From an uncultured bacterium (GTDB lineage Bacteria; Verrucomicrobiota; Verrucomicrobiia; Limisphaerales; UBA8199), in NCBI GenBank assembly GCA_963749495.1, contig CAVVMW010000014.1:448001-512000 (forward strand): 64,000 nucleotides of DNA. The letters run 5' to 3'. The translations under genes were made by a program, and so were the position numbers. The notes below the pieces were generated by a model. That model made no database searches and was not told the origin of the DNA. It was given only the letters and a program-made list of their open reading frames with translations. Of this stretch, positions 6,437 through 32,644 are shown piece after piece (position 1 is the first letter of the stretch; each line of letters opens with the position of its first letter).

Positions 6437-6815
6437 TACTATAGCAATGCTAGCCATTGCCCTAGAACACAGCGGGGCATTACCCCACCCTTCGATGCAA
6501 CCGCGCGAGAAGGAGGAAACGACACCACGCCCGCGATCCCAGGTTGGGCAGACGACGCGTGGGCTTGCTCATCCTGAAGTGTGTTGACTTATGCTCTGTG
6601 ATAGGAGTAACCCAAGAGCCATCAACACGGACGAGCAAGCCCTCAGAGCGTGGTTGGAAACGCGGGGAATCACCCTGCCGGAAGGCTGCTCGATGGCGGA
6701 GGCATATCGGCTCACAGCGCCATCAGTGGCAAGCAGAGACCAGGTCACACTGGCGGGCGCACCAAGTTCAACGGCACGAGCGTCGCGGTCCGGCGGGCAG
6801 GAGTCACGGCATAGG

Positions 6816-15967: not shown

Positions 15968-18900
15968 TCAGATTACGTCGAGTTCCCTGGCAGTGAACTT
16001 TCCGTATCTCAAGGCCAGTGTCGGCAGCACGAGCAGGTTCAGCACGGTGGAGGTCAGCAGTCCCCCGAGAATCACAATCGCCATCGGCCCTTCGATTTCG
16101 CGCCCCGCCTCACCCGCGCCGATGGCCAGGGGGAGCAACCCGAGCGCGGTGACGAGCGCGGTCATGAGGATGGGCAGCAACCGTTCGGAAGCGCCGCGAA
16201 TGGCGGCCTCGAGCCCCCACGTCAGGCCTTCCTGCTGCACCAGGTGCTCGAAATGCGAGATCATCATGATCGAGTTGCGGGTGGTGATGCCAAAGAGCGT
16301 GACGAAGCCGACCAGCGAGCCCAGCGAAAGCGAGCCGCCGGTCGCAAATACCGCCAGCACGCCTCCAATCAGGGCGAAGGGCATGTTGACAAGGACCAGC
16401 AGCAGGTTGCGCGGGGTGCGGAACACAATGCTGAGCAGCAAAACAATGCCCACCCCGGCAACGGCCGAGTGCAACAGCAACTCGCGCCTGGCCGAGGCTT
16501 GTGCCAGCCCGGAGCCGCCAAAAGTCGGATACACGCCGGGAGGAAACGAAACCTTGGCCGCTATCTGCTTTTTCATTTCCGCCACGAAGGACGCCATATC
16601 GCGTCCGGCAACGTTGCAGGTCACCTGTTGCCGGCGTTGCGCGCCATCATGGGCAATCAGGTAACGTCCGGTCGTAGGATAAATCTCGGCCAACTCGCGC
16701 AACGGCATCCGCTGCCCCTGGGAGTTGCGCAACAGCAACTCGCCAACTTGCTCCGGCGCCTTCCGGCTCGCTTCATCCAAAATCACGGTCACATCGAATA
16801 CCCGATTGCCGTCGTAGATTTGCGCAACCTCGGTGCCCTGACACGCGGTTTGAATTGCTTCCAGGACATCCACTGGCAGGAACCCAAACTGAGTCAATCG
16901 TTCGGGGCGCAACCGCATGACCATCTGTGGCGAACCGGGCTGCGACTCGACTTGCACATCCGCCGCGCCGCTGATCGTGGCAACCACCTGGCGCACCTCT
17001 CCGGCCTTTTGATCGAGCACATCCAGGTCGTCTCCGAAAATATTGACCGCCACCTGCGCAGTGGCGCCCGAAAGGGTCTCCTCGATGCGCTCAGCCAAAA
17101 AGGGCAGCACCCGGAAGGTCAAACCAGGAAACCTCTCCAGTGCTTGGCGGATTTCGCCAGCGACCCCTTCGGCCTCCTCACCGCTCAAAGGCTTCAAATC
17201 CACGTCCAGCTCGCTGTAATGCGTGCCCCAGGTGTCTTCGCCATTCTCCGCCCGGCCCGCTTGCTGCGAGACGGAACGGATGTGCGGATTTTTCAGCAGT
17301 TCCTCCGTGACCTGCCGGCCCAGGCGCAACGATGCCTCCAGCGATGTCCCAGGCAGAGCGGCCATGTGGATAATGAAATGGCCTTCGCGAAACTCGGGCA
17401 GGAATTCGCCCCCAAAGAACGGCAGCGTGGCCGCCGCCGCCAGGATCATCACCAGAGCCACGCCGATGACAGTGCGCGGCCGTCCGCTCAAAGTCCCCAG
17501 CCAGCGCCGATGGCGTTCTTTCATCCAGCGGACGTGCCGAGGCTTCTTCATGGGGGCTGGTCCGCGAGAGCATCCCCAGGCACAGCGCCGGGGTGAGAGT
17601 CAGGGCCACGGCCAGAGAGGCCAAAATCGCGAGAATGAACGCGGTCGCCAGGGGCGTGAACAGCTTTCCCTGAATGCCGGTCATGGTCAGGATTGGAAAA
17701 AACACCAGCGCAACGATGAATGTCGCATAGACCACGGCGCTGCGGACTTCCAGCGACGCTTCCAAGACCACTTGAAAAAGCGGACGCGGCTGAGCCCGGG
17801 CCAGGTTCTCCCGGATACGCCGCAGAATGTTCTCCACGTTGATAATCGCGTCATCCACCACCACACCGATGGCGATGGCAAAGCCACCCAGCGTGAGGGT
17901 GTTCAGCGAAACCCCGCAGCGATCGAGCACAATGACCGCCGCCAGCAACGAGAGCGGAATTGAGCTGAAGGAAATGAACGCGGTCCGCCAGTCCAGCAGA
18001 AAAAAGAGCAACACGGCCGCCACCAGGATGCCGCCGATCATCAGCGACTCGCCCACATTCCGAATCGAGGCCTCGATGAAGTTCGCCTGCCGAAACAGCC
18101 GCGGATGCACAGTGATTCTCTCGGAAACGAAAGCCGGCGCCATCTCCCCCAGCGCGCCCTCCACCGCCCGCGTCACCTCGATCGTATTCGCGCCATATTG
18201 GCTGTACACCTCGAGCACCACGCCGGGCTCGCCCAGGATCAACGCATCACCAAATTTCGGCTCCGGCCCCTCGGCGACCTTTGCCACGTCCTTCAAACGC
18301 ACGCTCGCGCCGTCATGGTGGGCCAGCACCACTTGGCCGAGTTGTTCCGCCGTGAGGGATTGTCCCTCCGTCCGCAGAATGATTCGCTGGTTGGCGTTGT
18401 CCATGAACCCCGCCCCGCGCACGGCGGTGGACTGCCGCGCCGCCGCCAGCACGTCTTCTAAAGCAAGGCCATGCTCCATCAGCAGGTTCGGGTTTGCTTG
18501 GACCTGAAGCTGCCGCACCTCGCCGCCGAAGACCTCCACTTTGGCGACCCCCGGCACTGCCAAAAGTCGCGGTCGCACCGTCCAATCCGCGAAGGCGCGC
18601 AGTTCCATCGCTGTGCGGTTGGTCGAAGTCAGTCCAAGGTTCAGCACCTTGCTCGTCGAAGAAATCAGCGGCCCCATTTTCGGGGCCTTAACGCGTTGCG
18701 GCAGTGAGCCCGCCACTTGGGTCAAACGCTCACTCACCATCTGGCGGACGCGGTAAATATCGGCGCGGTCCCTGAACACGGCCGTGATGGCCGAGAGCCC
18801 TTGAATTGATTCGGAACGAATCGCCACCAGGTTGGGCGCGCCGTTGATGCTGTGCTCGATCGGGCGCGTCACCAGCGCTTCCACTTCCTCGGGCGATAAT

Positions 18901-19063
18901 CCCGGCGCTTCGGTTTGGATGACCACTTGCGGCGGCGCGAACTCGGGAAAACGTCCAGTTTGGTGCGCTGTGCCACGTAAAGGCCATAAGCGAGGGCGGC
19001 ACACGCCAGCACAATGACCACGCCGCGATACCGCAATGAGAATTGAACGATCCGCCGGAGCAT
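15968..19063 (-). CDS. CusA/CzcA-like RND transporter, split by frameshifts near 18947 and 17545
   Basis: Three ORFs join: MLRRIVQFSL...LDVFP / EFAPPQV...GVVVDDAII / ...RLLPILMT. Confidence 0.88.
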
Positions 19064-19068
19064 CGGGG

Positions 19069-20081
19069 TTAATCAAACATCTTGATCTGATATTTTTGCT
19101 CCTCGGAAAGGAGAACCTGCGCGCCCTGGACGACCACCGGCTGGTTCGCACTTACCCCTCTGCTCACGAACCACCCGTCCTCCAGGCGATGGTCGAGCGC
19201 TATTTCCCGGCGTGTGAAAGTGCCCTCCCCGGTTTGCAGATAGATCCAACCGCGGCCGGCGTGCCGCACCACGGCAGAGTCGGGAACGATGCACCCGCTC
19301 AACGGCCCACTCTTGAGTTGGAGGTAGCCGCTCGCCGCCCTTCCCGGAGAGAGTCGCTGTGAATTCGTTTTGACGAGAAACAAAAACCCCTGACCTTGCA
19401 TCTGTGGGTCAACATTTGGCGCCGGCCCCAGCCATTGCGCCGAAATGGAAGGGCTTTCAGCGGATGCCAGGACGATTCGCGCGCCGGCGGGGTTGCTTTC
19501 AGCATTTGGCCCGCTGGCAGGTCAATCCGCACCAGCGCGCTCTCCAGCGAAGCCAGCGACCGCACAAAAACCGCGAGGTCCGGCTGCTCCGCAATCGCGG
19601 TCCCCCACGCCGACACCAGTCGGAGATGCACGGATTCCACGGCAATGTGATCGCGTTGCGCAGTCGCTTCCACCGCTTGCAGCGCCCGGTCGGAAGCATT
19701 CGCCTGCTCATTGAGCCGCTTCACTCGCTCGAATTCCTTCTCTGACGCCGCCGCGGCAGCCTCAGCGGAAGCCAGTTCGGCCACCAGTGCAACGAGCGGC
19801 GAGGGATCCATCACACGCGCAAATCCTCTCACCTCCGGGCTTAGCATGGCAGGTCTGAGGGGTTCGGCTTGCAGCGCGATTTTTGCCTGAGCTTCTCGCT
19901 CCAACGTCAGGATGATTTCGCCGTTCGCCCCAGACGTGACGCGCGATTTCGCAACGACGGGCCTCTCGCGTTCCGCTTCGGCCTGCCGTTCCGCGCTCAT
20001 TTTGAGAAAGGCGAAGACTAAAGCGCCCATGGCGCCTATTGCCACAAGCAGAACCAGGGCGGTCTTGAGGCTGTTTTTCAT
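19069..20081 (-). CDS. RND periplasmic adaptor-like protein, frameshift near 19490
   Basis: N-terminal TM and helical hairpin in ORF 19299-20081; C-terminal VPDSAVV...VVVQGAQVLLSEE in ORF 19069-19401. Confidence 0.8.
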
Positions 20082-20461
20082 GGTTCGGTCGAGGCCATCC
20101 TTCCGCTTTCAGCTCCAGATGTCCAGCCAAAGGGGACCCCAGGAACCCAGCGGGTTTGGATCGAGCAGGCGCAGTTCAGCTTTCAATATGCCTTAGGCGG
20201 TGGAAATAAATAGAGGTGGCAAGATGCCGCCGGGATTTTGGCGCCCAGCGAGGCGTGAACGAGGCGCATATCCAGTGATCTGCAACGAGTGAACAACGAA
20301 GCTGGGCGGCAAAAGAACAAGGCAGGTTGCTACCTTTATTTATTTCCACCGCCTTAATCGGGAAGCCGGTTCGCGCATCGGTGGGCGGACTGGCAACACC
20401 AGCGGCGCCCTGCGCACGGGCGCGCGCACGCCGCGCCCCAGCCAAGCGCAAGCGCGCGCGA

Positions 20462-22161
20462 TCAGGACAACTTCGCCCCGGCAAGCGTCTTGGACCCCCG
20501 CTCCGCCGGCAAGCCCGCCACCCGCAAGAGCGCGCCCGCCGCCTCCAAGTCCCTAATGGCCTCCCGCAGCCGCGGTTCATCCGACTTTGTCCGCGCCAGC
20601 GTTTGCTCCAGCGCCGCCAGTTGGTCCCGCGCCTGTTGTTCCGCCTGCCGGCTCAATTCCGCGATGCCCGTTGCCACCCGCTCACCCCAGTCCGCCGCCA
20701 GCCGCGACAGGTTTTTCTCCACTTCCCACCGTGCCTTACGCGTCAGCACACGCCCAAGCGGCCTGCGAAACACCCTCAACGGCACGACCCAACCAATCGC
20801 GCTGAACGCCACGTCGAAAGCATAAGCCACGTCCACCGGCGGTGCGGCTGGCTGCCGCACCTCCAGGGCGAACTCGCGCGGCGTCAGCGGCAAACCAAGC
20901 GCGTCCTTCACCTGCGCCGCCAGCCGGTCATCAAACGCGCGCAACGCTCGCTTGAGGTGCTCCCGAACCAGGCTCAACGGCTCGCAAAACATCCCTTGCT
21001 GCTCGCACGACACTTCGCCCATCTCGCGCTTCAGGAAAACGCCCAGCCACTCCCTCCAGCCGGCCGAGACCCCGAAAGCGTTCGGGGCAGTGGCCGGCCA
21101 TCCAGCCGCCCGCCCAATTCGGTCGTCACTTTCGCCTGCAACCTCCGCTGTGTTGGCTGCAACCGCTCCAGCGATTGCTCCAGCGCCTTCGCCGACCACT
21201 CCCGTGCCATCACCTGCAGCTCCTCCCGGAACAACCCGAACTGCCGTCGCTCCTCCGCCAGCCGCCCGCGCAACGCCTGCCGCGCGGATTCCGTCTGCGT
21301 TGCCGCCGCCAACCCCACGCGCAGATAATCCTGCGCCTGGCTGACGACCGAAGCCAGTTTGTGCCGCAGAATTGCCCCCGCCGCTTCGCCACCGCCCTGG
21401 CGCAGCGGCAGCAGCAGCCGTCCCACGAACTCCTCCCGGAGCGCCGCCAGCGCCGGCTTGACCGAGTAGAAGAACACCGACAGGCCGCCATCCCATTTTT
21501 CATCCAACTGTCCCCGCACGAACGCCAGTACCTCTCCCCGCTGCGCTTCCGTCAGCAGGTCAGCCTTTGTCAGCAGGAGCACGATCTTCGGTGTCTGCCG
21601 GCGCAACTCTTCGTGCAACGCCAGGTCGCGCTCGGACAGCGGCGCATCCGAGCTCACCGCCACTAGCGCGGCGCCTACATTCGGCAGCCATTTCATCGCC
21701 GCCTCTGTGTTGTGCCGGAACGCGCTCCCCAAACCTGGCGTGTCCACAAATTGCAGAGGCGCCAGGCCCTCCAGCGCGGGCAACTCCACTTCCACCGACG
21801 CCACCTGCTTCCAGTTTTCGTGATTCTGGTTCTCGCCCACGAACAGCCCGATGTCCTTCACCGGAATCACCTCCGCCCGCCCATCCAGGTAGCAGACCTC
21901 CGCCCGCTCCACCGGTCCAAAGCGCAGCCGCGTAATGACCGCTGTCAGCGGCACCACCCCGATCGGCAGCACGTCCCGTCCGGCCAGGTGGTTCAGAAAC
22001 GAACTCTTCCCCGCCTTGAACCGCCCGAACACGGCCACGTCAATTCCGTGGTCCCCCTCCATCAGCCCCTTGCAGGCCGCGATCTGCGGCCGGAGGTTCG
22101 CCAGCTTGAACTGCTCCGCCAGACCGGAAACTCGTTCGAGAATACCGCTTGTGGGGGTCAT
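20462..22161 (-). CDS. Bacterial dynamin-like GTPase (DLP-B), frameshift near 21090
   Basis: G1 GRFKAGKSS, G2 LPIGVVPLT, G3 DTPG, G4 TKAD; helical stalk continues in ORF 20462-21496. Confidence 0.88.
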
Positions 22162-22162
22162 T

Positions 22163-23299
22163 TCAGATATGCTTGTTGTCGCTCTCGTCCTTGACCGTGT
22201 AGCCCGAGTCCTGGCGCTGGAGGTTGACTACGTGCTTCTTGGTATAGGCTTCGAACAATTCATTAGGTGTCATCCCCATCACTTGCGCGAGCGAAATCAG
22301 GAAGTGCAGCAAATCCACGATTTCCACGCGGGCATTTTGTTTGTCGAATTTCTGGTAGTTCGCCCACCACTTCCATGGCACGCAGTCAACCAACTCCGCT
22401 AGCTCCTGGTCCACTGCCCGGCAGTAGTTCAGCATCCATTGCTGGCGCTGGGCGTCATCCATTTTATCCGTATCGACCCCGATCCGGCGGTTGAGCAATT
22501 TCTGGAGGTAAAATATCGCCTCCAATTTGTCAGGGTGCTTTTGGCAGTACGCGCTGAAAAGCTCTTCCGCAGTTTGGTCCAGCGGCAAATGCCCGCCCGT
22601 GCGCAACACTTCGGCCAGCGTGTCCACAACGCGCGGCTCAAGCCGCAGGCCACGATACGCCGCAACCGTTTTCTCGACGTTGTAGGCAGCCCGGCGCAGG
22701 GTGACCTCGCCGTCGTCCCATATTGCGTATGCCGCGCGCGGGTCGCCGTCTTTGGGCTGGCCGACGCTGCCGGGGTTAACCACGAGCGTCCGGCGGAAGC
22801 GCGTCTTCATCGGCAGGTGCGTGTGACCGAGAAACAGGAAGTCCGGGTATTTCACGGTATTCAATTCCGACTCCCAGAGCGTGACCGGGCTGTTTTCCGG
22901 CAGGTAAAGATAGAGCGGGTCCGCGGGCACGGCGTGGCAAGCCACACATATAGCGGAATCAAGCTGGAATCGTTGCAAAGGCTGCAGCCCGGCCAGGAAT
23001 TGTTTCATCTCTGCCGTCAGGACTTGTTGGCTCGCCGCCTGGGTAGCCGCTGCCAGCGCCTGGTAAGCTGCCGAGGAGCGAGAACCCTCGTCCAGTGCAA
23101 CAGCGCGGTCATGGTTGCCTTGCACCAGCCAATCGGGGGTAAGGCTCTGCATCGCCCAGGCCACGCATTCTGCCGGCTGCGGCCCGTAGTTGACCAGGTC
23201 CCCCAGGCACAGAATCTGGTCAATCTGCGGTTCGGCGGCCAAGACAGCTTGCAGGGCGGGCCAGTTGCCGTGAACGTCCGAGATAAGCAATATCTTCAT
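22163..23299 (-). CDS. Calcineurin-like metallophosphoesterase fused to all-alpha dimeric dUTPase
   Basis: N-terminus has SDVHGN, LGDLVNYG, GNHD, GHTH and NPGSVGQPKDGDPRA. C-terminus has ELAEL...WKWW...VEIVDLLHFLIS...NLQRQDSGY (dUTPase_2-like). Confidence 0.88.
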   Translation of the reverse strand: MKILLISDVHGNWPALQAVLAAEPQIDQILCLGDLVNYGPQPAECVAWAMQSLTPDWLVQGNHDRAVALDEGSRSSAAYQALAAATQAASQQVLTAEMKQFLAGLQPLQRFQLDSAICVACHAVPADPLYLYLPENSPVTLWESELNTVKYPDFLFLGHTHLPMKTRFRRTLVVNPGSVGQPKDGDPRAAYAIWDDGEVTLRRAAYNVEKTVAAYRGLRLEPRVVDTLAEVLRTGGHLPLDQTAEELFSAYCQKHPDKLEAIFYLQKLLNRRIGVDTDKMDDAQRQQWMLNYCRAVDQELAELVDCVPWKWWANYQKFDKQNARVEIVDLLHFLISLAQVMGMTPNELFEAYTKKHVVNLQRQDSGYTVKDESDNKHI

Positions 23300-24208
23300 A
23301 ACTCGCTACCACAATGAATGCGGTCTGTTTCGCAGCGTTGTGCCATTACCTGCTCCATTAAGTCTCCGATGCTCTGCTGCTGTGCGGGCGGGAACTCCAC
23401 CCGGATTGTTTCGCCGCCGCCTGCCGCGCGGATTTCCAGTTCGAGCTGGGCCAACCGGTCGTTGGCCCGAACCCGGTAACTTTCCAGCCGAGACAGCGGA
23501 CAGTAAGTTACGACGTCGCCGTACTTGTCGGACCGACCGACACGCAACCACGACCAGGTTTTCTCGTCCGAAATCAGAATCAACTCGCGCTCGGTGAGCA
23601 CCAGCATGGCCTGTGGCGCCAGCTCACGCTCAAACCATCGCCTTGCTCTGCCCCTAACGGCTGGCCAGGGCCGCGCGGCCAAGACGCGTTGCGACAAGGG
23701 CCTGAATTCGTGGACAGCATTCCAGAACCTCAACGGTGTCCCCTGAAGCAGCGCATTTAGGCTTCTGTCCTCTATGGGAATGGTTCCGCGGACTCCACTC
23801 ATGCCATCCAACACCTGCCGCGCCGCCTCCCTGTAAACCCGTTCCATGACTGCATTGAATTCGATCATCGCCGACTGCGTGACCCCATCGGTCGCGTAAT
23901 CGAGTTTCAGCCGTCCATAGAGCAGAATCACGGTCAATTCCACGAGCATCGTGTCAACGAAGGCAGCGCGCGCGAGGCGAGGCGGCATTTCTTCCGCGCC
24001 GCTCACAAGCACCCATTCGTCATCGAGCACGGCCAGCAGAGTCGCGGGCGAACACTGGCCGAGCGTTTTGGCGGCTGGGCCGAAGATCATCAACTGGAGC
24101 CGCTGGCCGCCCTCCAGCGCGGCTGACATGGCGCTGCGCAGCGGTTCGGGGGCTTCTTCCACCGTACCTAAGCCGGCAGGCAAATCTATCCCAAAGGAAT
24201 TTCTTCAT
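23296..24208 (-). CDS. Hypothetical protein (possibly PH-like domains); probable start MKKFLW at 24208 with frameshift near 24180
   Basis: 295-aa ORF whose stop overlaps the phosphoesterase start; no recognisable catalytic motif. Confidence 0.6.
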
Positions 24209-24253
24209 TGGATTTGGCGCTCTCTGCGCGGATGGCGGCTCGCGTCGCCTTTT

Positions 24254-24297
24254 CGCACTCCGCACTCCGCATTCCGCACCGCGCACTCCACACTTCG
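24254..24297. repeat. Degenerate heptamer tandem repeat (CCGCACT-like)
   Basis: cgcactc cgcactc cgcattc cgcaccg cgcactc cacactt, intergenic. Confidence 0.7.
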
Positions 24298-24309
24298 TTG
24301 AGCCATGTT

Positions 24310-26352
24310 TCACCTTCCTGCCGCCGGTTCTGCGGCCGGATATGTCGCCAACCGTCTCAGGTCGGCTTCAACGCTCGTCACGTCAGTTTCGGCGACGGCA
24401 GTGGCTGCCCGCGCTTCCAACTGGGCACTCAGCAGCCCGGCGCGGGCCGCAAACGCATCTCGAAGTTCCAACAACGATTGTCGAAACCACTGCCGCACTT
24501 GCCGGCGGTAGGAATTGAGCAAGTCTGGCAGTGTCTCACCAAGGTGTTGTTCCAATCGCGAGCGGGTGTGGCGGCGCAAGACCGCCGCGCCCAATGACGA
24601 CAGCAACACGGGTCGTTTCAGAACGAGGTTTTGGGTGAACGCCTCGGTGTCGGCGATCGGCGCGCCCGCAGGCGGGGGCAGTTGCTCGGACGTGTCTATT
24701 GCCAACCGCAGTGCCTGGTGAGCCAGTTGCAGTGCCTGGCCCAGTTGCCACCTCATCGAAGACAACTGTCTCACCAATTTCGCCACCCTTTCCGCCAGGA
24801 CCCGGTGCATGGAAAGCGACATTCCCTTGGCGATGGCCGCGCTTTTTCCCCCGGCGGAGAGCCAGAAGTCCGCGAGGTCTGCCGCCGCAGCCTCGATGAG
24901 GTCGTCGGCCAGCGTGGAGAAGCCGTCCACGATGGCGTCACCCTCCCGCTGCGCGGCCTCCAACAGGGCGTCGGCTTTCCGCACGGCGGCCAGGGCCTCC
25001 TGGACGCACTGGCCGGACGGCGCTGGGGACACGTGGGAACTGCGTTGGAGGCGGCTTTCGAGAACCGCGATGACCGCTTCGCGCAACGCGCCCACTTTGC
25101 GTTTCTGCGCGGCAGCGGCTTGCTCGAGACGCGATTCGACCAGCGGCATCAATTCCTCTTCCAGCCATTCGTCGCAGAGAGCGGCACTTTCGCCGAGCAC
25201 GCTAACGAAGTGCGCCCGGAGTTTCAGGTTCGCTTGTGCGGAGAGTTGACGCTCGACGTAATCGCCGGTCTGCCGGCGCTCGGCAGCCCCCAGCAGATCC
25301 GCTTTGCTCACCAGCACCATCGCCTGTGCACCCGACTGGTAGAGGGCATGGACAATGGTCAAATCCTCGTGGGTGATGGTCGAGCCGGCGTCCACCAGCA
25401 CGATGCCCAGGTCGCACCGCGGCAAATAGGCAGCCGTCTCTTCGGCGCCAGCCGTAGCGAGCGAACCCAGTCCCGGCGTATCGACGAATGTCACCCCCTC
25501 GCGCAATCGCGGCGAGGGCAGTTGCGCGCTAATGCGTACGACATGCTTGGCATTCCCTGGATTCTGCTGTTCCGTTACAAACTCCGCCAGACGAGAAAGT
25601 TCGACCACTTGCGGCTTGCCTTCGGCAAACGCGATAATGGCCCGAGCTTCGGCGCCGTAGCTCACCCGGGTGGAAAAGCCGTCACCGGGGTGACGCCCAC
25701 GGGTAAAACCGTGTTCCCCAGCAGATAGTTCAATAGCGACGACTTGCCCGAGCTGACGCGTCCGAATACCCCGATTTCAAAGACCTGGTTTTCCAACCTC
25801 TCCAGCAACATCGCCAAGGCGCTGCGAAATTCGATCAAGCCGTGGGCCGTGACCACGCGCTCCAATTCGCGCAGGAGCCTGGCCTGATCGGTCGTTTTCT
25901 CCAGCCGCGCAAGGCGAGCCTGCAGGTCGGCATCCGGACCCTTGTTCCAGTAAGCGATAAGCCGTTCGAGCGTTGCGTTCAACTCGGCGACCACTTCGTT
26001 GATCGCCTTGACGTCCTCCTCGCTCAAAACGCCGTAGCCGCGCATGCGCTGCGGCTCCATTTCCGCCACCGCAATCTGAGCAAACGTGAATCGCCCGCCC
26101 GCAGCCCACATCGCTCCGCACACGGGAGTGGGCCGGGGCAGTCGGAGGTCGGTCAGGGCACGGTTCATCGCCTGCCGCACCCGCTCGATGTAGTCGTGCA
26201 ACACCTTGCGCTGCACGGGAGTTGAATCCTGGGTGTATTCCGCGAAAGGGGACGTTCGAGCCGGCGGTTGCCAGAATGTGCTCGGCTTCGGACAGGAGAT
26301 TGTCGATGTGCCGGAACGTGGTGAGCAGGTGTCGCTCGTGATTCTCGTTCAT
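24310..26352 (-). CDS. Bacterial dynamin-like GTPase (DLP-A) with N-terminal helical extension, frameshifts near 26250 and 25670
   Basis: G1 GRVSSGKSS, G2 LPVGVTPVT, G3 DTPGLGS, G4 SKAD distributed across three ORFs. Confidence 0.88.
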
Positions 26353-27089
26353 GTCAGGGGGAAGATCTCGTGGATGCGCCGATCCAGATCGAGACGCCGG
26401 AGGGCGTAAGGATTGCTGAGATCGTACTTGCCGGTTGCCAGTTCTTCAAAGAGCTCCCGCAGCACCAGTGGGCTGCCTGCTGATCTCCGGTGCAGCCACT
26501 CGACAATGGTGGCCGCCTCAGGGGGAATGAGGGCCGCCTTCAGCGCCGCCTCGACCATTTCCTGCGTCTCCGACAAATGAAACGGGTGCAACTCAACTCG
26601 AGCAAACCGCACCAGCATCGGCCAGAAATGGCCGATGTCCCACGAATGCTCCGAACGCGCGCAAATCCAGACCGGCGCCCCTTGAGCGATGCGCTCGAAG
26701 AACGAACTCAGTTTGGGTGTGGTCCAGCCGACCCCATCAAAAACAACCGTCCTGCCCGCCGCGCGCAGCGATTCCCGCAGCCGCTGCTTGCGCTGGAGGA
26801 GCTTCATCTCCGCGGCATCCAACCCCAGTTGCGGTTCGAGGCTGTCGCAAATCTCTCCCCAATGTGCCGATTTGGGTGAAACCAGCAGCGCGAGGGAATC
26901 GCGCAGATGCGCAACCAGTGCCGACTTCCCGACGCCGGCCTGGCCAAGAATGAGCGCATGCTTGTGTTCCGCACACAGTTCGCAAAGCCGCGCCATTTCT
27001 TTGCGCCGCGCCGCGAATGGAAGAGATATGAGAATGTGACCCGACGTTTCCGCTGGCCTCTTGCTCAGGACTTGTTTCGGCGTTGCCAT
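26349..27089 (-). CDS. P-loop ATPase (AAA/STAND-like)
   Basis: Walker A GQAGVGKS, Walker B-like TVVFDG, SAGSPL (GxP) motif; stop overlaps the DLP-A start. Confidence 0.8.
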   Translation of the reverse strand: MATPKQVLSKRPAETSGHILISLPFAARRKEMARLCELCAEHKHALILGQAGVGKSALVAHLRDSLALLVSPKSAHWGEICDSLEPQLGLDAAEMKLLQRKQRLRESLRAAGRTVVFDGVGWTTPKLSSFFERIAQGAPVWICARSEHSWDIGHFWPMLVRFARVELHPFHLSETQEMVEAALKAALIPPEAATIVEWLHRRSAGSPLVLRELFEELATGKYDLSNPYALRRLDLDRRIHEIFPLT

Positions 27090-27120
27090 AACTCACTACC
27101 GTTGCGAACAATATCGTTTC

Positions 27121-27187
27121 GGTAGGAGTCGTCAGCCCAAGGGCGGTTTGCCCCGAACCCGTTCGGGGGCAGGCAAACTCCATTGCC
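27121..27187 (-). ncRNA. Fluoride (crcB) riboswitch, internal copy
   Basis: GGCAATGGAGTTTGCC...AAACCGCCC-TT-GGGCTGACGACTCCTACC; matches the crcB consensus, with pseudoknot GGAGU/ACUCC. Confidence 0.9.
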
Positions 27188-27223
27188 TTTGACACACTAT
27201 CACCCGTTAGCGGCGGACAGGAA

Positions 27224-28525
27224 CTACCTCCGGCTCCCGAACAATGCGCCTCCGTATTGCGCCTTCTTGCCCAGCTCCCGCTCGATGGCCAGCAGCCGGT
27301 TGTATTTGGCGATGCGTTCGGACCGGCACGCCGACCCTGTCTTGATCTGCCCCGCGCCCGTCCCCACCGCAAGGTCCGCGATAAACGCGTCTTCGGTCTC
27401 GCCCGACCGATGCGAAATCACAGCGCCGTAACCGGCCTTCTGCGCCATCGATACTGTCTCCAGTGTCTCGGACACGGTGCCGATCTGATTCAGTTTGATC
27501 AGGATTGCGTTGGCGATTCCATCGCGGATGCCCTCCGCGAAGATTTTCGGGTTGGTCACGAAGTTGTCATCGCCCACGAGTTGCATCTTCCTGCCCAGCG
27601 CCTTCGTGAGCGCCTTCCACCCCTCGCGGTCCTCTTCGCCCATCCCGTCCTCCAGCGAGACGATGGGATATTTCCTCGCCCACTCGGCCCACAACGCCAC
27701 CAGCTCCGCAGGCGTCTTGCGCGACCCGTCCGATTTTTTCATCACGTAAGCGCCCTCGTCCCAAAACTCGCTGGCTGCCGGGTCCAGGGCGATGGCAATT
27801 TGTTTGCCCGCCTGGTAACCCGCCGTTCCGATAGCCTCCAGAATCACGTCCACCGCTTCCGTGTTGGTCTTTAGGTTCGGCGCGAAGCCACCCTCGTCGC
27901 CAACGGCCGTCACCAACCCGCGTTTCTGCAAAAGCTTCTTGAGCGTGTGAAACGTCTCCGTCCCATACCGCAGCGCCTCGGCAAACGTCGGCGCCCCAAT
28001 CGGGAAGAGCATGAATTCCTGGAAATCCACATTGTTGGTCGCATGCGCCCCGCCGTTCAGGACGTTCATCATCGGCGCAGGCAGCACATAGAGCGCGTTC
28101 TCTTCCCCGCCGAAAAGCCTCCGAATGTGCGTGTAGAGGGGCGAAGCCGACTCCGTAGCCGCCGCCCGGCACGCCGCCATCGAAACGCCCAGAATGGCAT
28201 TCGCTCCCAGCTTCGCTTTGGTCTCCGTCCCGTCCAGCTCGCACATCATTCTGTCAATCTCCTTTTGCTCCTGCGGCGATTTCCCCTGCAGCCTCGGCGC
28301 AATCACCGTGTTGACGTTCGCCACCGCTTTCAACACACCCTTGCCGCCATACCGCTTCGGCTCCTGGTCCCGCAACTCCACGGCTTCCCGGATGCCCGTG
28401 GAGGCGCCCGATGGGACGCTCGCCGACGCTGTAATGCCGTTCGACAAAACGACCGTTACCGAAACGGTCGGATTGCCCCGCGAGTCGAGAATTTCCAATG
28501 CGCTGATGTTTTCTATGGTGTTCAT
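27224..28525 (-). CDS. eno: Enolase (phosphopyruvate hydratase)
   Basis: [46 protein letters not shown]. Confidence 0.97.
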
Positions 28526-28544
28526 ATCGAGTCCTGTTCTGTGG

Positions 28545-29015
28545 TTATTCAATTTCACCGGGACTGGTTTGGTCCCCGGGAAGTTCATCGGGCTGTTTGA
28601 CGATGAGCACGCTGCAATGGGCGTGGTCACTAATCCGGTCCGCCGTGTCGCCGAGCAGGCGTCCCCAAAGCTCCGAGTGATCGCTGTGGCCGACGACGAT
28701 GAGGTCGTAGCCGGCGCTGTTGGCGAAGGTCACCATTACCTTGGCGGCATGGCCGGCGCGGCTCTCGCAGCCGATGGCGATGCCAAAGCGTTGGGCCACC
28801 TTCTCGACTTCGTGCTTGCGCTCCTGGAAGTAATCGCGCGCGGCATCGGCTTCGCCTTCCGCTTCCCCGGGCAAGTCCGCATGGCGCGGCAGTGGCTGCC
28901 GCACCCAGAGCGCCGTCAATTGCCCGCCGCCCTCACGGGCCAGTGCCGCCGCGCGTTCCAGCGCCGCCCGCCCGCCTTTCGATCCGTCGTAACCGACCAG
29001 GATTTTCCGGAACAT
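28545..29015 (-). CDS. Universal stress protein (USP)
   Basis: [37 protein letters not shown]. Confidence 0.92.
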
Positions 29016-29022
29016 AATCGCT

Positions 29023-30243
29023 TCACTTTCCCAGGGGCTGAGGTTGGACTTTCACCCTGCCGTTGAGCTTCCGCTGATAAAGCCGGCCCCAGGCCTGCAT
29101 CGTCCGCCGGGACGGCTCGAAGAACTTCGGCGCGATGACGGTGGGCACAAACGCGCTCAGAATGACGACCGTGACGAGGATGGAATACTGCTTCTGGTCA
29201 ATGATCCTGTTTTGCAGCCCGAACAGGGCAGAGATTGTGCCGAAGGTCAGGCCTGTGGACATGAGCAGCGTCGTGTAATTGGCCTCTCGCGGCCGCATGA
29301 AGTATTTCCGGCACAACGGCAGCACGCCCACGAGCTTGGTGGCCATCTTGAGCGCCAGGAGCGCCAGGATAACGCCCGAGGCCGCCGCCAGCGCGCGGAG
29401 CGACACGAACGAACCGGCGCGGATGAAGTAAAAAGGGGTGAAGACCGCGAAGGCGATGCTGCGCATCCGGTGCACCAGTGTCTTGTCGCGCAGGAACACA
29501 CCGGCCACAACCAGGCCGAGGAGGTAGGCGGGGAGCACCGCCTCGCTCTTGGCCGTCAAGGCCAGCCCGCCCAGGAAGAAGAGCACGAGGAAAATGAACT
29601 TAATCTCCGGCTCGCTCGCCCGGGTGGCCCCCAAGCGCACGACGATGTACTGGGTCCACCTGGGCATAAACCACAGCGTCACGCAGGTAACGATGACGAA
29701 CACCAGCAGCCAGACGTTGAAATTGGCGAAAATGAGGCCCAGTGCCAGCACTGTGCCAAGGTCGTTGATGAAACACGCCGCCAGAATCATCTTGCCCAGG
29801 GCCGTCTCGCCTTGCCGCGTCTCAATCATCACGGCATAGACCACGGCGACGGAAGTCGTCGAGAGGGCTATGCCGGCGATTTGGGCCTGGTGAAGGGGCC
29901 AGCCGAGGGCAAACCGCGCGAAGGCCCAGACTCCCGCGAAGGGCAGGAGAAATGCCGCAGTGCCGATGGCCATGCTCGCGCGCAGGTTGGCCCGGAGGGA
30001 TACCGGGTCAATCTCCGCTCCGGCCAGGAAGGTCAGCACGCCACTGCCGAGCATGGCCAGGAAATTGGTCCAATCGGTGGAGCGCAGCAGTGGTTGGCCG
30101 CCGCCCAGGTGGAGGTTGCCCGCAACGACGCCGACGAAGATCTCGGTCAACGCCACCGAGATGCCCAACCGAATCGAGGTGAGGCTGGCTACCAACGCCA
30201 ACCCCATCCAGAGTGCTGCAATAAACCAGATATTCTCAGACAT
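29023..30243 (-). CDS. CPA2-family cation:proton antiporter
   Basis: Multi-TM protein; FLAGAEID, IALSTTSVAVV, ACFINDLG. Start MSENIW at 30243 with a Shine-Dalgarno (SD) site. Confidence 0.9.
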   Translation of the reverse strand: MSENIWFIAALWMGLALVASLTSIRLGISVALTEIFVGVVAGNLHLGGGQPLLRSTDWTNFLAMLGSGVLTFLAGAEIDPVSLRANLRASMAIGTAAFLLPFAGVWAFARFALGWPLHQAQIAGIALSTTSVAVVYAVMIETRQGETALGKMILAACFINDLGTVLALGLIFANFNVWLLVFVIVTCVTLWFMPRWTQYIVVRLGATRASEPEIKFIFLVLFFLGGLALTAKSEAVLPAYLLGLVVAGVFLRDKTLVHRMRSIAFAVFTPFYFIRAGSFVSLRALAAASGVILALLALKMATKLVGVLPLCRKYFMRPREANYTTLLMSTGLTFGTISALFGLQNRIIDQKQYSILVTVVILSAFVPTVIAPKFFEPSRRTMQAWGRLYQRKLNGRVKVQPQPLGK

Positions 30244-30273
30244 AACTCCCACCTCGCCACATCCTGTGGCGCT

Positions 30274-30349
30274 GGTAGGAGTCATCAGCACTGAAACCGT
30301 TCAGGCGGTTTTCCCCGAAGCCCTTGAGGGGAAGGCAAACTCCATTGCC
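30274..30349 (-). ncRNA. Fluoride (crcB) riboswitch, leader of the antiporter operon
   Basis: GGCAATGGAGTTTGCC...AAACCGCC...GCTGATGACTCCTACC; a putative TTGCCA-17 bp-CAGAAT promoter lies just upstream. Confidence 0.92.
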
Positions 30350-30442
30350 ACAGTAATTCTGGCCCGCAATGCCCACGCTGGCAACTAAAATCGTGCCGGC
30401 CTGGTAATCGGTCAGTGAAGGCGGGAACGGAGTCCCCTGCGA

Positions 30443-31436: not shown

Positions 31437-31718
31437 ATGGCAACCAAGACTATCCGGGTGGCGCTGCCGGACGAGTTGAGCGGCTTCGTTCAGCGTGCGG
31501 TCAAAGGTGGACGATATCAGGACGCGAGCGAAGTCGTTCGCGAGGCCCTTCGCCGGATGGAAGCGGCCGAGTTGGCGGAAGAACTTAGACAATTCGAACA
31601 CGCCTTTGCGGGGGGACACGACCGGGCTGAGACCGAGGAAGAAATCCAGCGCGTGGAATCCGCCGTGCGAGACGGTCGCAAGAGGAGATCGCCGTCGTTT
31701 ACGATACGGCAGTCGTGA
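31437..31718 (+). CDS. ParD/CC2985-like RHH antitoxin
   Basis: IRVALPDELSGFV...GRYQDASEVVREALR. Confidence 0.8.
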   Translation: MATKTIRVALPDELSGFVQRAVKGGRYQDASEVVREALRRMEAAELAEELRQFEHAFAGGHDRAETEEEIQRVESAVRDGRKRRSPSFTIRQS

Positions 31719-32101
31719 TCAGCGCGATCGGCTGGCGTGGCCCCGCCCACCGTTGCCTGGCGCTGGTCGCCTGGCGGCGCCGCAGGCTGCTACTCTCGGC
31801 TGACATCAACGCCGAATATGGATCGCGCGTCCCCGCTGTGCTCGCCCAAGAGGCGCCGCAGCCAAACGCGCTTGGCGCACTGGCCTGGATCCGGGCCAAA
31901 GCTCTCTGGGTGGAACCTGCGCCGCTGGGCAAGCAGCGCTCGCGGGACATCAAAGACGAGCGGTTCATCGCGGCGGCGCTGGCCGGCAGCGCCAAGGCGA
32001 TTGTCAGCTACGACAAAGACCTGCTGGCCCTCCATAAGCCCTTCGGCCTCCCCGTCATGCGGCCGGCCGCCTTTCTGGTTTGGATGGAACCCCGCCACTA
32101 A
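31688..32101 (+). CDS. PIN-domain toxin (PIN_3-like); start codon apparently damaged
   Basis: IAVVYDTAVVISA...RDIKDERFI...IVSYDKDLL. Confidence 0.78.
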   Translation: MAVVYDTAVVISAIGWRGPAHRCLALVAWRRRRLLLSADINAEYGSRVPAVLAQEAPQPNALGALAWIRAKALWVEPAPLGKQRSRDIKDERFIAAALAGSAKAIVSYDKDLLALHKPFGLPVMRPAAFLVWMEPRH

Positions 32102-32150
32102 AGCGAGCCCCGCTGCTCGGGGCGCATTTGGCCGTCGCCCAGGTGGCGGT

Positions 32151-32295
32151 GGGCGCATTCGCGAGTGCTTGGTGCCCAGGCGGAGCGCCGACTTGCAGTC
32201 GGCTTAGACCGGACCAAGAGCAACGAATTCGGAAACGGGGTACGCGCAAAGCCGACTGCAAGTCGGCGCTCCACCAAGCACTCGCGAATGCGCCC
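32151..32295. mobile_element. MITE with 24-bp TIRs, 10-bp target duplication and an internal REP pair
   Basis: GGGCGCATTCGCGAGTGCTTGGTG ... CACCAAGCACTCGCGAATGCGCCC, flanked by AGGTGGCGGT (32141-32150 and 32296-32305). A solo TIR lies at 32601-32624. Confidence 0.85.
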
Positions 32296-32432
32296 AGGTG
32301 GCGGTTGCCCGCCAGGACGCCGACGAAGATCTCGGTTAACGCCACCGAGATGCCCAACCGGATCGAGGTGAGGCTGGCCACCAACGCCAACCCCATCCAG
32401 AGTGCTGCAACAAACCAAATATTCTCAGACAT
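32296..32432 (-). pseudogene. Duplicated 5' fragment of the CPA2 antiporter
   Basis: MSENIWFVAALW...GVLAGN, near-identical to the start at 30243 and interrupted by the MITE. Confidence 0.85.
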
Positions 32433-32462
32433 AACTCCCACCTCGCCACATCCTGTGGCGCT

Positions 32463-32538
32463 GGTAGGAGTCATCAGCACTGAAACCGTTCAGGCGGTTT
32501 TCCCCGAAGCCCTTGAGGGGAAGGCAAACTCCATTGCC
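32463..32538 (-). ncRNA. Fluoride riboswitch, third (duplicated) copy
   Basis: Reads identical by eye to 30274-30349. Confidence 0.88.
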
Positions 32539-32644
32539 GCAGTAATCTTCGCGCCGAATGCCCGCGCTGGCAACTAAAATTGTGCTGGCGTGTGCGCATG
32601 GGGCGCATTCGCGAGTGCTTGGTGCTAAGGTTGGCCGCGCGACC

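Follow-up and report, generated by a model that had tools for sequence, protein, structure and literature searches.

The fusion gene and its neighbours

The window (the whole stretch of DNA analysed, 64,000 nucleotides) contains a gene in which a metallophosphoesterase (MPE) is joined to a short dUTPase-like domain (DUT). It lies in a row of genes headed by a fluoride riboswitch. The features are as follows.

20462..22161, minus strand: dynamin-like GTPase 2, directly downstream of the fusion (Dynamin_N, 72 bits), split over two frames here
22163..23299, minus strand: MPE-DUT fusion gene, 378 aa plus stop codon, ATG start, unbroken ORF
22166..22534, minus strand: short dimeric-type DUT domain, residues 256-378, with homology to a 126-aa stand-alone protein from about residue 253
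22232..22270, minus strand: source-like copy of the helix repeat, TPNELFEAYTKKH, residues 344-356, at the start of the last DUT helix and bearing the K..N..R...GY motif
22535..22573, minus strand: linker helix TAEELFSAYCQKH, residues 243-255, repeating part of the last DUT helix
22592..23299, minus strand: MPE domain of SapH/3rqz type with helical insert (residues 62-103), residues 1-236, from sequence and Foldseek matches
23296..24183, minus strand: 295-aa protein, directly upstream of the fusion
24310..26352, minus strand: dynamin-like GTPase 1 (Dynamin_N pieces), split over three frames here
26349..27089, minus strand: P-loop NTPase (AAA_16-like, Pfam), first gene after the riboswitch
27116-27196, minus strand: fluoride riboswitch heading the gene row of the fusion (Rfam RF01734, 51.1 bits against a gathering threshold of 34)
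27224..30358, minus strand: neighbouring fluoride unit, with a riboswitch (30269-30358), a Na+/H+ exchanger (29023-30291) and an enolase (27224-28630)

The MPE occupies residues 1 to about 236 of the fusion and is followed by the short dimeric-type DUT at residues 253-378, approximately. At 23296-23299 the letters ATGA hold both the ATG start of the fusion and, overlapping it, the stop codon of the gene before it, and the downstream gene begins 1 nt past the fusion stop codon, start/stop arrangements which couple the fusion to its neighbours. A sequence-only reading had described one uninterrupted 378-aa ORF with calcineurin-like and dUTPase parts. This is borne out by the domain-architecture search that it proposed, in which Metallophos and dUTPase_2 families both score above cut-off, and by the database: 84 of the 120 best clusters are full-length fusions of 370-395 aa, all of them from Verrucomicrobiota. 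Residues 1-378 are covered in full by a single one (P0006) of the 150 top-ranked sequences from 1.84 billion representatives.

The same reading held that the fusion would fall if no independent genome carried it, or if a stop and restart separated the domains. Neither is the case. The fusion is present in the genomes of ten other species, and contigs span the junction without an indel: an independent contig from a related strain, about 91% alike, crosses 22454-22921 free of gaps, and a near-identical contig covers 22557-22707 with one difference. These indel and bridging checks, the only use made of the sequencing runs, relied on DNA contigs that cover small fractions of the stretch (0.06-0.17). 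Indels do occur in neighbouring genes here (the dynamins, AcrB, position 25671), as an artefact of an error-prone long-read assembly joining two genes would require. Against this, the same 378-aa frame recurs in the 84 clusters and the ten other genomes and the junction is bridged without gaps, leaving an artefact with a negligible chance of being correct. It is concluded that the MPE-DUT fusion is genuine and conserved. The dynamin genes are a different matter: dynamin-like GTPase 1 is a single frame at locus L001 and dynamin-like GTPase 2 at L002, and a contig that is identical in all other respects carries an additional G after 25671, so at least that frameshift in dynamin 1 is an assembly indel.

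The metallophosphoesterase half

Pfam places Metallophos_2 (PF12850) at residues 1-194 with 73.5 bits (cut-off 27) and Metallophos (PF00149) at residues 1-71 with 55.4 bits (cut-off 21.5). Calcineurin-like MPE enzymes bind metals through DxH, GD, GNH[DE], H and GHxH motifs, and by eye these are D8-x-H10, G33-D34, G61-N62-H63-D64, H122 and G158-H159-x-H161. All eight metal ligands (D8, H10, D34, N62, H63, H122, H159, H161) are retained in 83 of the 84 fusions.

The solved sequence relative of this half is the metallophosphoesterase 3rqz (E 3e-29, residues 1-229). A Foldseek search with the predicted model returned 3rqz at E 1.5e-18 and SapH (3qfn/3qfm) at E 2.5e-15, with TM 0.79-0.82 on the target over about 255 aligned columns, so that the SapH/3rqz fold is matched including its helical insert. 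SapH (Spr1479 of Streptococcus pneumoniae, PDB 3qfm/3qfn) and the Sphaerobacter protein 3rqz thus share with the fusion an MPE subfamily, the insert and all metal ligands, although identity is only 26-33%. They differ in being single-domain proteins without known fluoride regulation, whereas the fusion has two domains and lies behind a riboswitch. The scores for other subfamilies are lower. Models of the YfcE family phosphodiesterases stay below their NCBIfam cut-offs (TIGR00040, 52.3 bits against 56.25; PRK09453, 64.6 against 117), and the MPE half is related to that family, yet not a member of it. Models of the ApaH symmetrical Ap4A hydrolase are also below cut-off (NF001204, 33.1 bits against 176; TIGR00668, 14.9 against 222.85).

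SapH is described in its PDB title as an Ap4A hydrolase and phosphodiesterase. Our guess, by analogy, is that an Ap4A or phosphodiester substrate has carried over to the MPE half. The earlier suggestion that this half hydrolyses PPi is not borne out here, the nearest characterised relative being an Ap4A hydrolase/phosphodiesterase and not a pyrophosphatase.

The dUTPase half

The DUT half matches dUTPase_2 (PF08761) in two stretches, the better at residues 258-338 with 74.4 bits (gathering cut-off 22.9), while the Pfam MazG-like and PRA-PH models are below cut-off. Its solved sequence relatives are the dimeric dUTPases 2cje, 2yay and 1w2y (E 1e-9 to 1e-10, residues 264-355). In the alignment with the Leishmania dUTPase, the metal ligands E299, E302, E326 and D329 fall on its ExxE...ExxD, and the K..N..R...GY of the last helix falls on its C-terminal motif. 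With the dimeric dUTPases of Campylobacter jejuni (1w2y) and Trypanosoma/Leishmania (1ogk, 4dkb, 2yaz), the DUT half has in common ExxE...ExxD, PWKWW, HF and the C-terminal K..N..R...GY. Those enzymes have 230-290 residues and the DUT half only about 126, without the mobile-domain insert; unlike them, it sits behind an MPE and an additional N-terminal helix that repeats a portion of its last helix. Consistent with the short form, its score with NF049964, the NCBIfam epsilonproteobacterial equivalog of the long mobile-domain form, is 51.2 bits (cut-off 300), and in the alignment it lacks the insert of about 60 residues of the trypanosomal enzymes. The sequence-only reading had called the domain complete, and in this short form it is, since residues 253-378 correspond to the entire 126-aa stand-alone protein.

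Foldseek of the full-length model gave only MPE matches, and the DUT half was therefore folded alone (pLDDT 88.2), which gave an all-alpha structure of the dUTPase/MazG superfamily type. The top rows were then the dUTPases of T. cruzi, T. brucei, L. major and C. jejuni, with probability about 1.0 and E 0.1-0.5. VIA gave dimeric dUTPases at Z 8.4, rmsd 3.0 and 83 aligned residues, with MazG-like enzymes also among the best. DR2231 of Deinococcus radiodurans and the MazG-type NTP pyrophosphohydrolases are four-helix, all-alpha proteins of similar size (Z about 7), but their identity to the DUT half is only 13-16%; the PDB titles of DR2231 structures name dUMP and dUMPNPP. The structural scores are modest, as is usual for a helical bundle, so the assignment to the family is carried by the sequence evidence.

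All four DUT ligands are present in 63 of the 84 fusions. The window copy is one of these and has every metal ligand of both heads. At least one is lost in the other 21, so dUTP hydrolysis is not obligatory across the family. In a subclade of seven fusions the EEED ligands read QREE and the K..N..R...GY motif is gone as well, and the fusion at L007 is likewise degenerate in its DUT half. W309, W311, W312 and H332 are near-invariant even in fusions missing ligands. Some ligand losses may be errors in the metagenomes.

Origin of the fused dUTPase

The stand-alone DUT of PVC bacteria is 62-78% identical to residues 253-378 of the fusion. It is a 126-aa dUTPase_2 protein (Verrucomicrobiota, Kiritimatiellia, Lentisphaerae) of the same length and motifs as the fused domain, but it is free-standing and in a housekeeping setting, whereas the fused domain is in a fluoride setting. 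It adjoins rpsD-rpoA-rplQ and a trxB-like gene in 20-30 of 66 loci, and at 66 of 69 non-fused loci there is no fluoride riboswitch within 10 kb. In the genome of the window it lies behind a class II ribonucleotide reductase; tblastn found no ribonucleotide reductase beside it in other genomes (80 loci).

In a DUT tree of 82 rows, the 11 fused domains and four free copies from fluoride islands (L011, L017, L014, L031) form a clade with support 100/100. Within it the fused domains are monophyletic (99/93) and sister to L014 and L031. At L014 the two genes are still separate, with the MPE stop codon, 7 nt and then the DUT start. Apparent DUT fusions at L015, L031, L038, L040 and L042 were rejected, their upstream frames being low-complexity read-through and each DUT having its own M..PDKL start. 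Phylogeny and gene order together point firmly to the fused DUT being a paralogue of the 126-aa housekeeping dUTPase-type gene, its evident parent. They indicate with equal firmness that the DUT entered a fluoride island as a free gene, came to lie beside a riboswitch-controlled MPE gene and was then fused to it, in a single event. The free fluoride-island copies are intact, so the DUT appears to have been recruited as an enzyme before the fusion took place.

The linker helix

The helix between the two domains, TAEELFSAYCQKH, is identical to TPNELFEAYTKKH at 8 of 13 residues. A comparison of the two segments as profiles built from 74 orthologues gives a score of 35.2, a value reached by none of 5000 column shuffles (mean 5.7, sd 3.3, maximum 25.1); as a control, the best of 217 MPE windows against the DUT domain scores 17.1. 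The resemblance of the linker to the C-terminal segment, which had been noticed by eye, is thus far beyond chance. The helix is predicted at residues 244-254 with pLDDT of about 65-80. It is missing from the stand-alone DUT and from the tails of stand-alone MPE proteins, with the exception of P0095, which has a linker-like tail.

It had further been proposed that the repeat records the origin of the fusion by duplication. This gains no support: the unfused neighbour state at L014 has no linker helix, its tail, spacer and start adding up to about the length of the linker, and the codons do not point to a recent conversion event linking the two helices, since identical ones are not in excess (1-6 among 5-8 shared residues). 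Duplication, templated patching and convergence are all possible origins.

Fluoride riboswitches at the fused loci

In the window the riboswitch lies 3.8 kb and three genes upstream of the fusion, and the row reads P-loop NTPase, dynamin, 295-aa protein, fusion, dynamin. A same-strand fluoride riboswitch is found upstream in all 11 fused loci (the window and L001-L010), at distances of 19 nt to 4.5 kb. It stands immediately before the fusion in L002, L003 and L005, and in L008, L009 and L010 only an MPE paralogue separates the two. At L002, L008, L009, L010 and L031, free MPE paralogues carry separate riboswitches. The fusion belongs to the RF01734 regulon in the sense that a same-strand riboswitch is upstream of it with no opposing gene between. 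The fluoride link suggested in the sequence-only reading is considerably strengthened by these data.

The neighbours are also conserved. The P-loop NTPase has the equivalent position in L001-L006, L008, L009 and L014. Dynamin-like GTPase 2 is the next gene after the fusion in L002, L003 and L005-L010, and in L004 it is downstream, non-adjacent. The 295-aa protein has no Pfam match; its relative in L004 has its own fluoride riboswitch upstream.

No further riboswitch was found between 27116-27196 and the fusion, and a search for a hidden one in the 126-nt gap within the gene row (24184-24309) or inside the gene gave best scores below 5 bits (E above 6). A crude scan for promoter and terminator patterns over 19000-28000 gave counts not above those of shuffles, and nothing usable near the fusion or in the gap. 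We can only infer co-transcription with the riboswitch, because it is 3.8 kb and three genes away and the gap could hold a promoter or terminator.

These observations bear on whether the fusion might be a plain housekeeping dUTPase that has been joined to a neighbour and has no particular tie to fluoride. In the stand-alone copy from the genome of the window the first metal ligand is replaced by Q (QQVAEL), this copy has a long branch in the tree, and no canonical trimeric dUTPase was found in this genome, which is 88% complete. The fused copy may for these reasons bear much of the dUTPase load, as a housekeeping role would imply. Such a role is nevertheless quite improbable, given a riboswitch at 11 of 11 fused loci, a clade of fused and fluoride-island copies apart from the housekeeping ones, and a separate DUT kept by five of six fusion-bearing genomes (this one and four of the five others).

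A role as a nucleotide-depleting anti-phage effector acting with the dynamin-like proteins had also been raised. Dynamin-like and nucleotide-degrading proteins are known in defence systems, and with PADLOC-DB 2.0 (single-protein models) dynamin-like GTPase 2 matches the LeoA model (E 2.2e-9), while the fusion matches PDC-S10 weakly and over residues 1-72 only (E 0.0013, 16 bits). Set against this are the small-molecule riboswitch at every fused locus, the descent of the DUT half from a housekeeping gene, neighbours that include enolase and a Na+/H+ exchanger, with CrcB and Usp in a second fluoride island of the same genome, and a synteny conserved in a species-level clade, not patchy as in defence islands. 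The defence proposal thus finds little to stand on, and we regard it as very improbable.

A third alternative is that only the MPE head serves the fluoride response, the DUT being a scaffold for dimerisation or nucleotide binding that is drifting towards a pseudoenzyme, with the window copy intact by chance. The unequal retention of ligands in the two halves (83 against 63 of 84), the QREE subclade without K..N..R...GY, the degenerate L007 copy and the riboswitches on free MPE paralogues all fit this, and the near-invariance of the tryptophans and H332 despite ligand loss is as expected for a retained fold or pocket. However, the window copy and 62 other clusters retain the four ligands with the full motif set, the free DUT genes in fluoride islands are intact, and part of the losses may be sequence errors. 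We consider this alternative unlikely, though it is the strongest of those weighed here.

A proposed function under fluoride

Our preferred reading, to which we would give a probability of roughly 0.6, is that the fusion is a cytoplasmic two-headed nucleotide phosphohydrolase of the fluoride-riboswitch regulon in a soil/peat clade of Verrucomicrobia, and that it offsets enzymes poisoned by fluoride. With rising fluoride, transcription would be let past the riboswitch and on along the whole gene row, from the P-loop NTPase to the second dynamin. The DUT head would convert dUTP and dUDP to dUMP, and would probably dimerise the whole protein. The MPE head would act on phosphoanhydride or phosphodiester bonds in nucleotide-pool compounds; judging by SapH, dinucleotides such as Ap4A are our first guess, and PPi is possible. 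The cell's own two-metal pyrophosphohydrolases (dUTPase, Nudix enzymes, pyrophosphatase) would be poisoned by metal-fluoride complexes, and the fusion would stand in for them with extra or less fluoride-sensitive activity, the purpose also ascribed to the riboswitch-controlled second enolase. No family I pyrophosphatase was found in this genome (88% complete).

MPE enzymes are themselves classic fluoride targets, NaF being used as a phosphatase inhibitor, so a lower sensitivity of the fusion is not a given.

Such poisoning finds support in the literature. The titles of PDB entries 4dlc and 4dl8 describe the T. brucei dimeric dUTPase with dUMP and MgF3- or AlF3 as transition-state analogues, and fluoride IC50 values of 3-20 uM are given for Nudix Ap4A, CoA and ADP-ribose hydrolases (PMC2248764). 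Cargo named as established for the riboswitch includes pyrophosphatase, enolase and phosphoesterases of the haloacid-dehalogenase fold (PMC11139923), and mutS is listed among the genes neighbouring the crcB motif (PMC2864571).

A wider proposal is that corruption of the nucleotide pool is a main route of fluoride toxicity, and the fusion a dedicated countermeasure. Micromolar fluoride would jam two-metal pyrophosphohydrolases (dUTPase via dUMP-MgF3-, Nudix enzymes and pyrophosphatase), and the riboswitch-induced dimeric MPE-dUTPase would hold down dUTP together with dinucleoside polyphosphates or PPi. This is tentative and rather unlikely. In a bolder form, the MPE head may cleave phosphate adducts derived from fluoride (fluorophosphate, nucleoside phosphorofluoridates), and the copied linker helix may couple the active sites.

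Comparison with known fluoride operons

Fluoride riboswitches are known to control exporters, ion transporters and a small number of enzymes that fluoride inhibits (enolase, pyrophosphatase). In Enterobacter cloacae FRM the riboswitch operon is reported as ppaC-uspA-eno-gpmA-crcB (PMC5533749), and operons of this type, as far as described there, drive extra copies of fluoride-inhibited phosphoryl-transfer enzymes along with ion transporters. The islands of the present genome similarly hold enolase, a Na+/H+ exchanger, Usp and CrcB. They differ in carrying the MPE-dUTPase fusion, the P-loop NTPase and two dynamin-like GTPases. In the literature covered, which does not extend to the gene lists of Baker et al. 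2012 (Science), where more cargo may be named, no link between fluoride riboswitches and such a fusion, P-loop NTPase or dynamin was found: metallophosphoesterase and dUTPase turned up with the riboswitch only as unrelated co-mentions, and dynamin did not turn up with it.

Fluoride tolerance is described as limiting microbial degradation and synthesis of organofluorines (PMC11139923), so new tolerance genes would be useful. The fusion family also provides a natural series of catalytic-domain decay, with 63 of 84 copies intact and 21 degenerate while the partner domain stays intact. For the bacterial dynamins and the P-loop protein next to the fusion, fluoride would be a well-defined inducer. 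The stepwise recruitment, juxtaposition and fusion of a dUTPase paralogue hints that DNA-precursor hygiene may be an unrecognised arm of the fluoride response, and the locus offers two easily expressed enzymes with which this could be tested.

Domain structure and predicted fold

The fusion joins a metallophosphoesterase (MPE) head, a linker helix and a short dimeric-type dUTPase (DUT) head in a single frame:

22163..23299, minus strand, MPE-DUT fusion, uninterrupted ORF of 378 aa

In Pfam, the calcineurin-like MPE head matches Metallophos_2 (residues 1–194, 73.5 bits), and the DUT head matches dUTPase_2 in two stretches starting at residue 258 (74.4 bits). By sequence, the closest solved protein to the MPE head is the Sphaerobacter MPE 3rqz (E 3e-29, residues 1–229), and the nearest to DUT residues 264–355 are the dimeric dUTPases of Leishmania, Campylobacter and Trypanosoma (E ~1e-10). 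The MPE metal ligands are complete (D8, H10, D34, N62, H63, H122, H159, H161), as are the four acidic ligands of the dUTPase site (E299, E302, E326, D329), and the DUT head also carries PWKWW, HF and a C-terminal K..N..R...GY motif. The protein scores under every cut-off of the YfcE, ApaH and epsilonproteobacterial dUTPase models of NCBIfam, and is thus a relative of these curated equivalogs and not a member.

The full-length AlphaFold2 model, based on a 110-sequence alignment (mean pLDDT 88.4, pTM 0.65), consists of two confident domains connected by a helix at 244–254 of lower confidence. Foldseek matches the MPE half to 3rqz (E 1.5e-18), to SapH/Spr1479 (E 2.5e-15, TM ~0.8), a structure whose title names an asymmetric Ap4A hydrolase and phosphodiesterase, and to two archaeal hypothetical proteins, while YfcE and lambda phosphatase score far lower. 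The C-terminal 147 residues, modelled separately (pLDDT 88.2), match dimeric dUTPases best, followed by iMazG, DCTPP1 and DR2231 (Foldseek E 0.1–0.5); the VIA comparison with 1ogk gives Z 8.4 and rmsd 3.0 over 83 residues, with many other matches at Z ~7. Modest structural scores are usual for helical bundles, so that family membership is based on sequence, with which the fold agrees.

The fusion is genuine

The sequence-only reading of an MPE and a dUTPase in one uninterrupted ORF is borne out by Pfam and by homologues. In a collection of 5.8 billion proteins, 84 of the 120 best clusters are 370–395 aa long and align end to end at 59–89% identity; their sources, where named, are Verrucomicrobiota or Limisphaerales, and their automatic annotations are ‘dUTP diphosphatase’ and ‘metallophosphoesterase family protein’. 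Independent genomes also have the fusion, with ten more fused loci (L001–L010) in species-representative genomes. Of the best 150 matches from scanning 1.84 billion representatives (50% identity) without a profile, only one (P0006) covers residues 1–378, and each of the others aligns with just one of the two parts, MPE or DUT. There is no stop and restart between the domains: the junction is crossed without an indel by public contigs (set X4, record 29, 22454–22921; set X1, record 1, 22557–22707).

Indel errors are present in the assembly, but the fusion is not among them. Both dynamin-like genes (24310–26352 and 20462–22161) and the AcrB-type pump gene (15968–19151) occupy two or three frames in the window, and each is a single frame in relatives. 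The frame change in the first dynamin-like gene coincides with an extra G behind 25671 in an otherwise identical contig, and related contigs have 1-nt indels at 21069, 24167 and 26255. These frame splits are probably long-read assembly indels and not pseudogenes. Since one base is missing at 24167 in related contigs, the 295-aa gene preceding the fusion may in fact begin further upstream. The gap between that gene and the first dynamin-like gene (24184–24309) holds a short run of GTGCGGA-like repeats.

Parentage and origin

The C-terminal half has a stand-alone counterpart, and 69 of the 80 loci match residues ~253–378 only. The stand-alone DUT is a protein of 126 aa starting M-x-x-PDKLEEIFRLQ, is 62–78% identical to the fused domain, and occurs in Verrucomicrobiota, Kiritimatiellia, Lentisphaerae and Opitutales. 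Its neighbours, across 66 loci, include trxB-like genes (30/66), rplQ (21/66), rpoA (20/66) and rpsD (20/66). Some of these genes are preceded by long open frames, which were considered and dismissed as junk. The window's own genome has one such gene:

6710–7090 of locus L081 (contig C27), minus strand, stand-alone DUT of 126 aa, after a class II ribonucleotide reductase

Its product shares 53% identity with the fused domain. The first glutamate of the metal ligands is replaced by Q (QQVAEL), and the branch leading to this copy in the tree is long. A stand-alone copy is also kept in four of the five other fusion-bearing genomes. No canonical trimeric dUTPase was found in the own genome (88% complete), where the sole PF00692 match (29.9 bits) is a 343-aa protein (L083 868–1899, minus strand, contig C1) with a dCTP-deaminase/dUTPase-like (Dcd-like) N-terminal domain, a long coiled coil and a hydrophobic membrane tail. 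Given the housekeeping neighbours, the apparent lack of a trimeric enzyme and the retained copies, the simplest view is that the 126-aa protein serves these bacteria as their housekeeping dUTPase and that the fused domain is an additional paralogue.

A maximum-likelihood tree of the DUT region covered every one of the 80 loci as well as the window and the own genome's stand-alone copy, and no sequence was left out. One clade (support 100/100), nested within the verrucomicrobial housekeeping copies, holds the 11 fused domains and the free DUT copies of four fluoride islands (L011, L017, L014 and L031). Within it the fused domains are monophyletic (99/93), with L014 and L031 as their sister and L011 and L017 as earlier branches; the fusion arose once. 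In L017, the free DUT has an exchanger gene under riboswitch control on one side and enolase on the other. In L014, the order is riboswitch, an MPE gene ending in LRTGGNLPAEHHQQPKT and a stop, 7 nt, and a DUT starting ATG-MNKPDKL. The order with fewest steps would be duplication, recruitment to the island, adjacency to MPE and a single fusion, a direction that we infer from a tree rooted at its midpoint.

The L014 record is labelled Candidatus Aquilonibacter, another phylum, and its DUT nests in the verrucomicrobial clade. Its island is of verrucomicrobial type (P-loop, dynamin fragment, riboswitch, MPE, DUT, dynamin), and the label points to horizontal transfer of the island or else to faulty binning.

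The repeated helix at the junction

A duplicated helix at the junction, also proposed from the sequence, stands up well to statistics. The linker TAEELFSAYCQKH (243–255) and TPNELFEAYTKKH (344–356) match at 8 of 13 positions, and the resemblance persists in orthologues (TAEELFSAYYQKH or NPYEQFNAYFQKH against TPEELFEAYTKKH). The profile score is 35.2, against a maximum of 25.1 in 5000 column shuffles and 17.1 for the best other profile window. The likeness ends precisely where the stand-alone protein starts (PDKL). The linker helix is absent from the stand-alone DUT, the unfused L014 pair and most free MPE tails; a 257-aa MPE (P0095) with a linker-like C-terminal stretch may be a truncated fusion. 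The codons show no sign of recent copying between the linker and the last helix. Because the repeat is kept in orthologues, is absent from most unfused forms and has no recent copying in its codons, it dates back to roughly when the fusion formed and is maintained at the protein level. Three origins can be envisaged: what remains of a DUT tandem, a patch copied from a template, and convergent evolution towards a helix able to dock as the last one does. In L014 the MPE tail, spacer and DUT start together approximate the linker length, so a net insertion is not required.

A natural DUT-DUT tandem in a single chain is found in a 236-aa metagenome protein (P0183), whose first copy is cut short in the last helix and whose second copy has a degenerate first metal motif.

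Fluoride riboswitch context

Three fluoride riboswitches were identified in the window using Rfam, all on the fusion's strand, and the own genome has five in total, all on the window's contig. The fusion lies in the row headed by the first:

27116–27196 onward, minus strand, riboswitch, then P-loop NTPase, dynamin-like GTPase 1, 295-aa unknown, fusion, dynamin-like GTPase 2

The genes on either side overlap or abut the fusion, and no further riboswitch was found between the 27116–27196 element and the fusion. The next unit upstream consists of a riboswitch (30269–30358), a Na+/H+ exchanger and enolase.

An upstream fluoride riboswitch is present in 11/11 fused loci, and in relatives it is more tightly linked to the fusion. 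It ends 19–27 nt ahead of the fusion in L002, L003 and L005; elsewhere the intervening genes are a free MPE paralogue alone (L008, L009, L010), P-loop and dynamin genes (L001, L004), two unknown genes and a P-loop gene (L006), or an AAA+ ATPase gene (L007). Additional free MPE paralogues with riboswitches of their own occur in L002, L008, L009, L010 and L031. A covariance model made from 27 of these riboswitches, run on the 69 non-fused loci, has matches in only three (L011, L017, L031).

Several other features of these regions were seen. In the window, the third riboswitch (32458–32547) hardly differs from the second, and behind it lies a shortened copy of the exchanger N-terminus (32055–32480), the remainder apparently displaced by small plus-strand ORFs (31437–31718 and 31715–32101), which we take to resemble a putative antitoxin/PIN-type toxin pair. 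A second fluoride island in the own genome (L082, contig C14 634000–646000) has one riboswitch followed by a partial CrcB, DUF190, Na+/H+ exchanger, Usp and enolase, and another followed by a P-loop NTPase, a 47-aa MPE remnant with 68% identity to the N-terminus of the fusion, and a 563-aa dynamin-like GTPase. L011 is an unusually dense island, with six fluoride riboswitches in 19 kb, on both strands, around free DUT, P-loop, exchanger and dynamin-like genes. Group II intron D1-D4-4 models match the window at 42426–42573 (plus strand, 63 bits) and 61955–62099 (minus strand, 66 bits).

Predicted function

We consider the fusion to be probably (at about 60%) a nucleotide phosphohydrolase induced by fluoride. 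The function of its parent, conversion of dUTP/dUDP to dUMP, is most likely retained by the DUT head, given that this head is up to 78% identical to free copies (53% to the own genome's copy) with motifs intact. By analogy with SapH, candidate substrates of the MPE head would be Ap4A-like dinucleotides or phosphodiesters; PPi, as proposed in the sequence-only reading, is possible. The own genome (88% complete) yielded no family I inorganic pyrophosphatase but two membrane pyrophosphatase matches (C5:508540–510681 and C31:7199–8596). The further proposal of a nucleotide-depleting defence effector is not supported.

The rationale would be fluoride compensation, in line with the regulon literature, in which cells put additional copies of phosphoryl-transfer enzymes that fluoride inhibits under riboswitch control (PMC11139923; PMC5533749). 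Database entries for dimeric dUTPase crystals list dUMP with MgF3- or AlF3 (PDB 4dlc, 4dl8), a passage in PMC2248764 gives 3–20 uM fluoride as blocking many Nudix hydrolases, and one in PMC2864571 places mutS among the earliest genes found beside the crcB motif.

Across the family, at least one DUT ligand is lost in 21 of the 84 fusions, and all MPE ligands are kept in 83 of 84. This asymmetry would suit a DUT head that serves mainly as a dimerising or binding module, but the window's own DUT head is intact, and we regard such a role as unlikely.

No literature linking fluoride riboswitches with MPEs, dUTPases or dynamins was found, in a search that did not extend to Baker et al. 2012 and its supplements. 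What is new here is where the fusion came from and by which steps, the helix-repeat statistics, the finding that the two active sites decay unequally, and the contig evidence across the junction.
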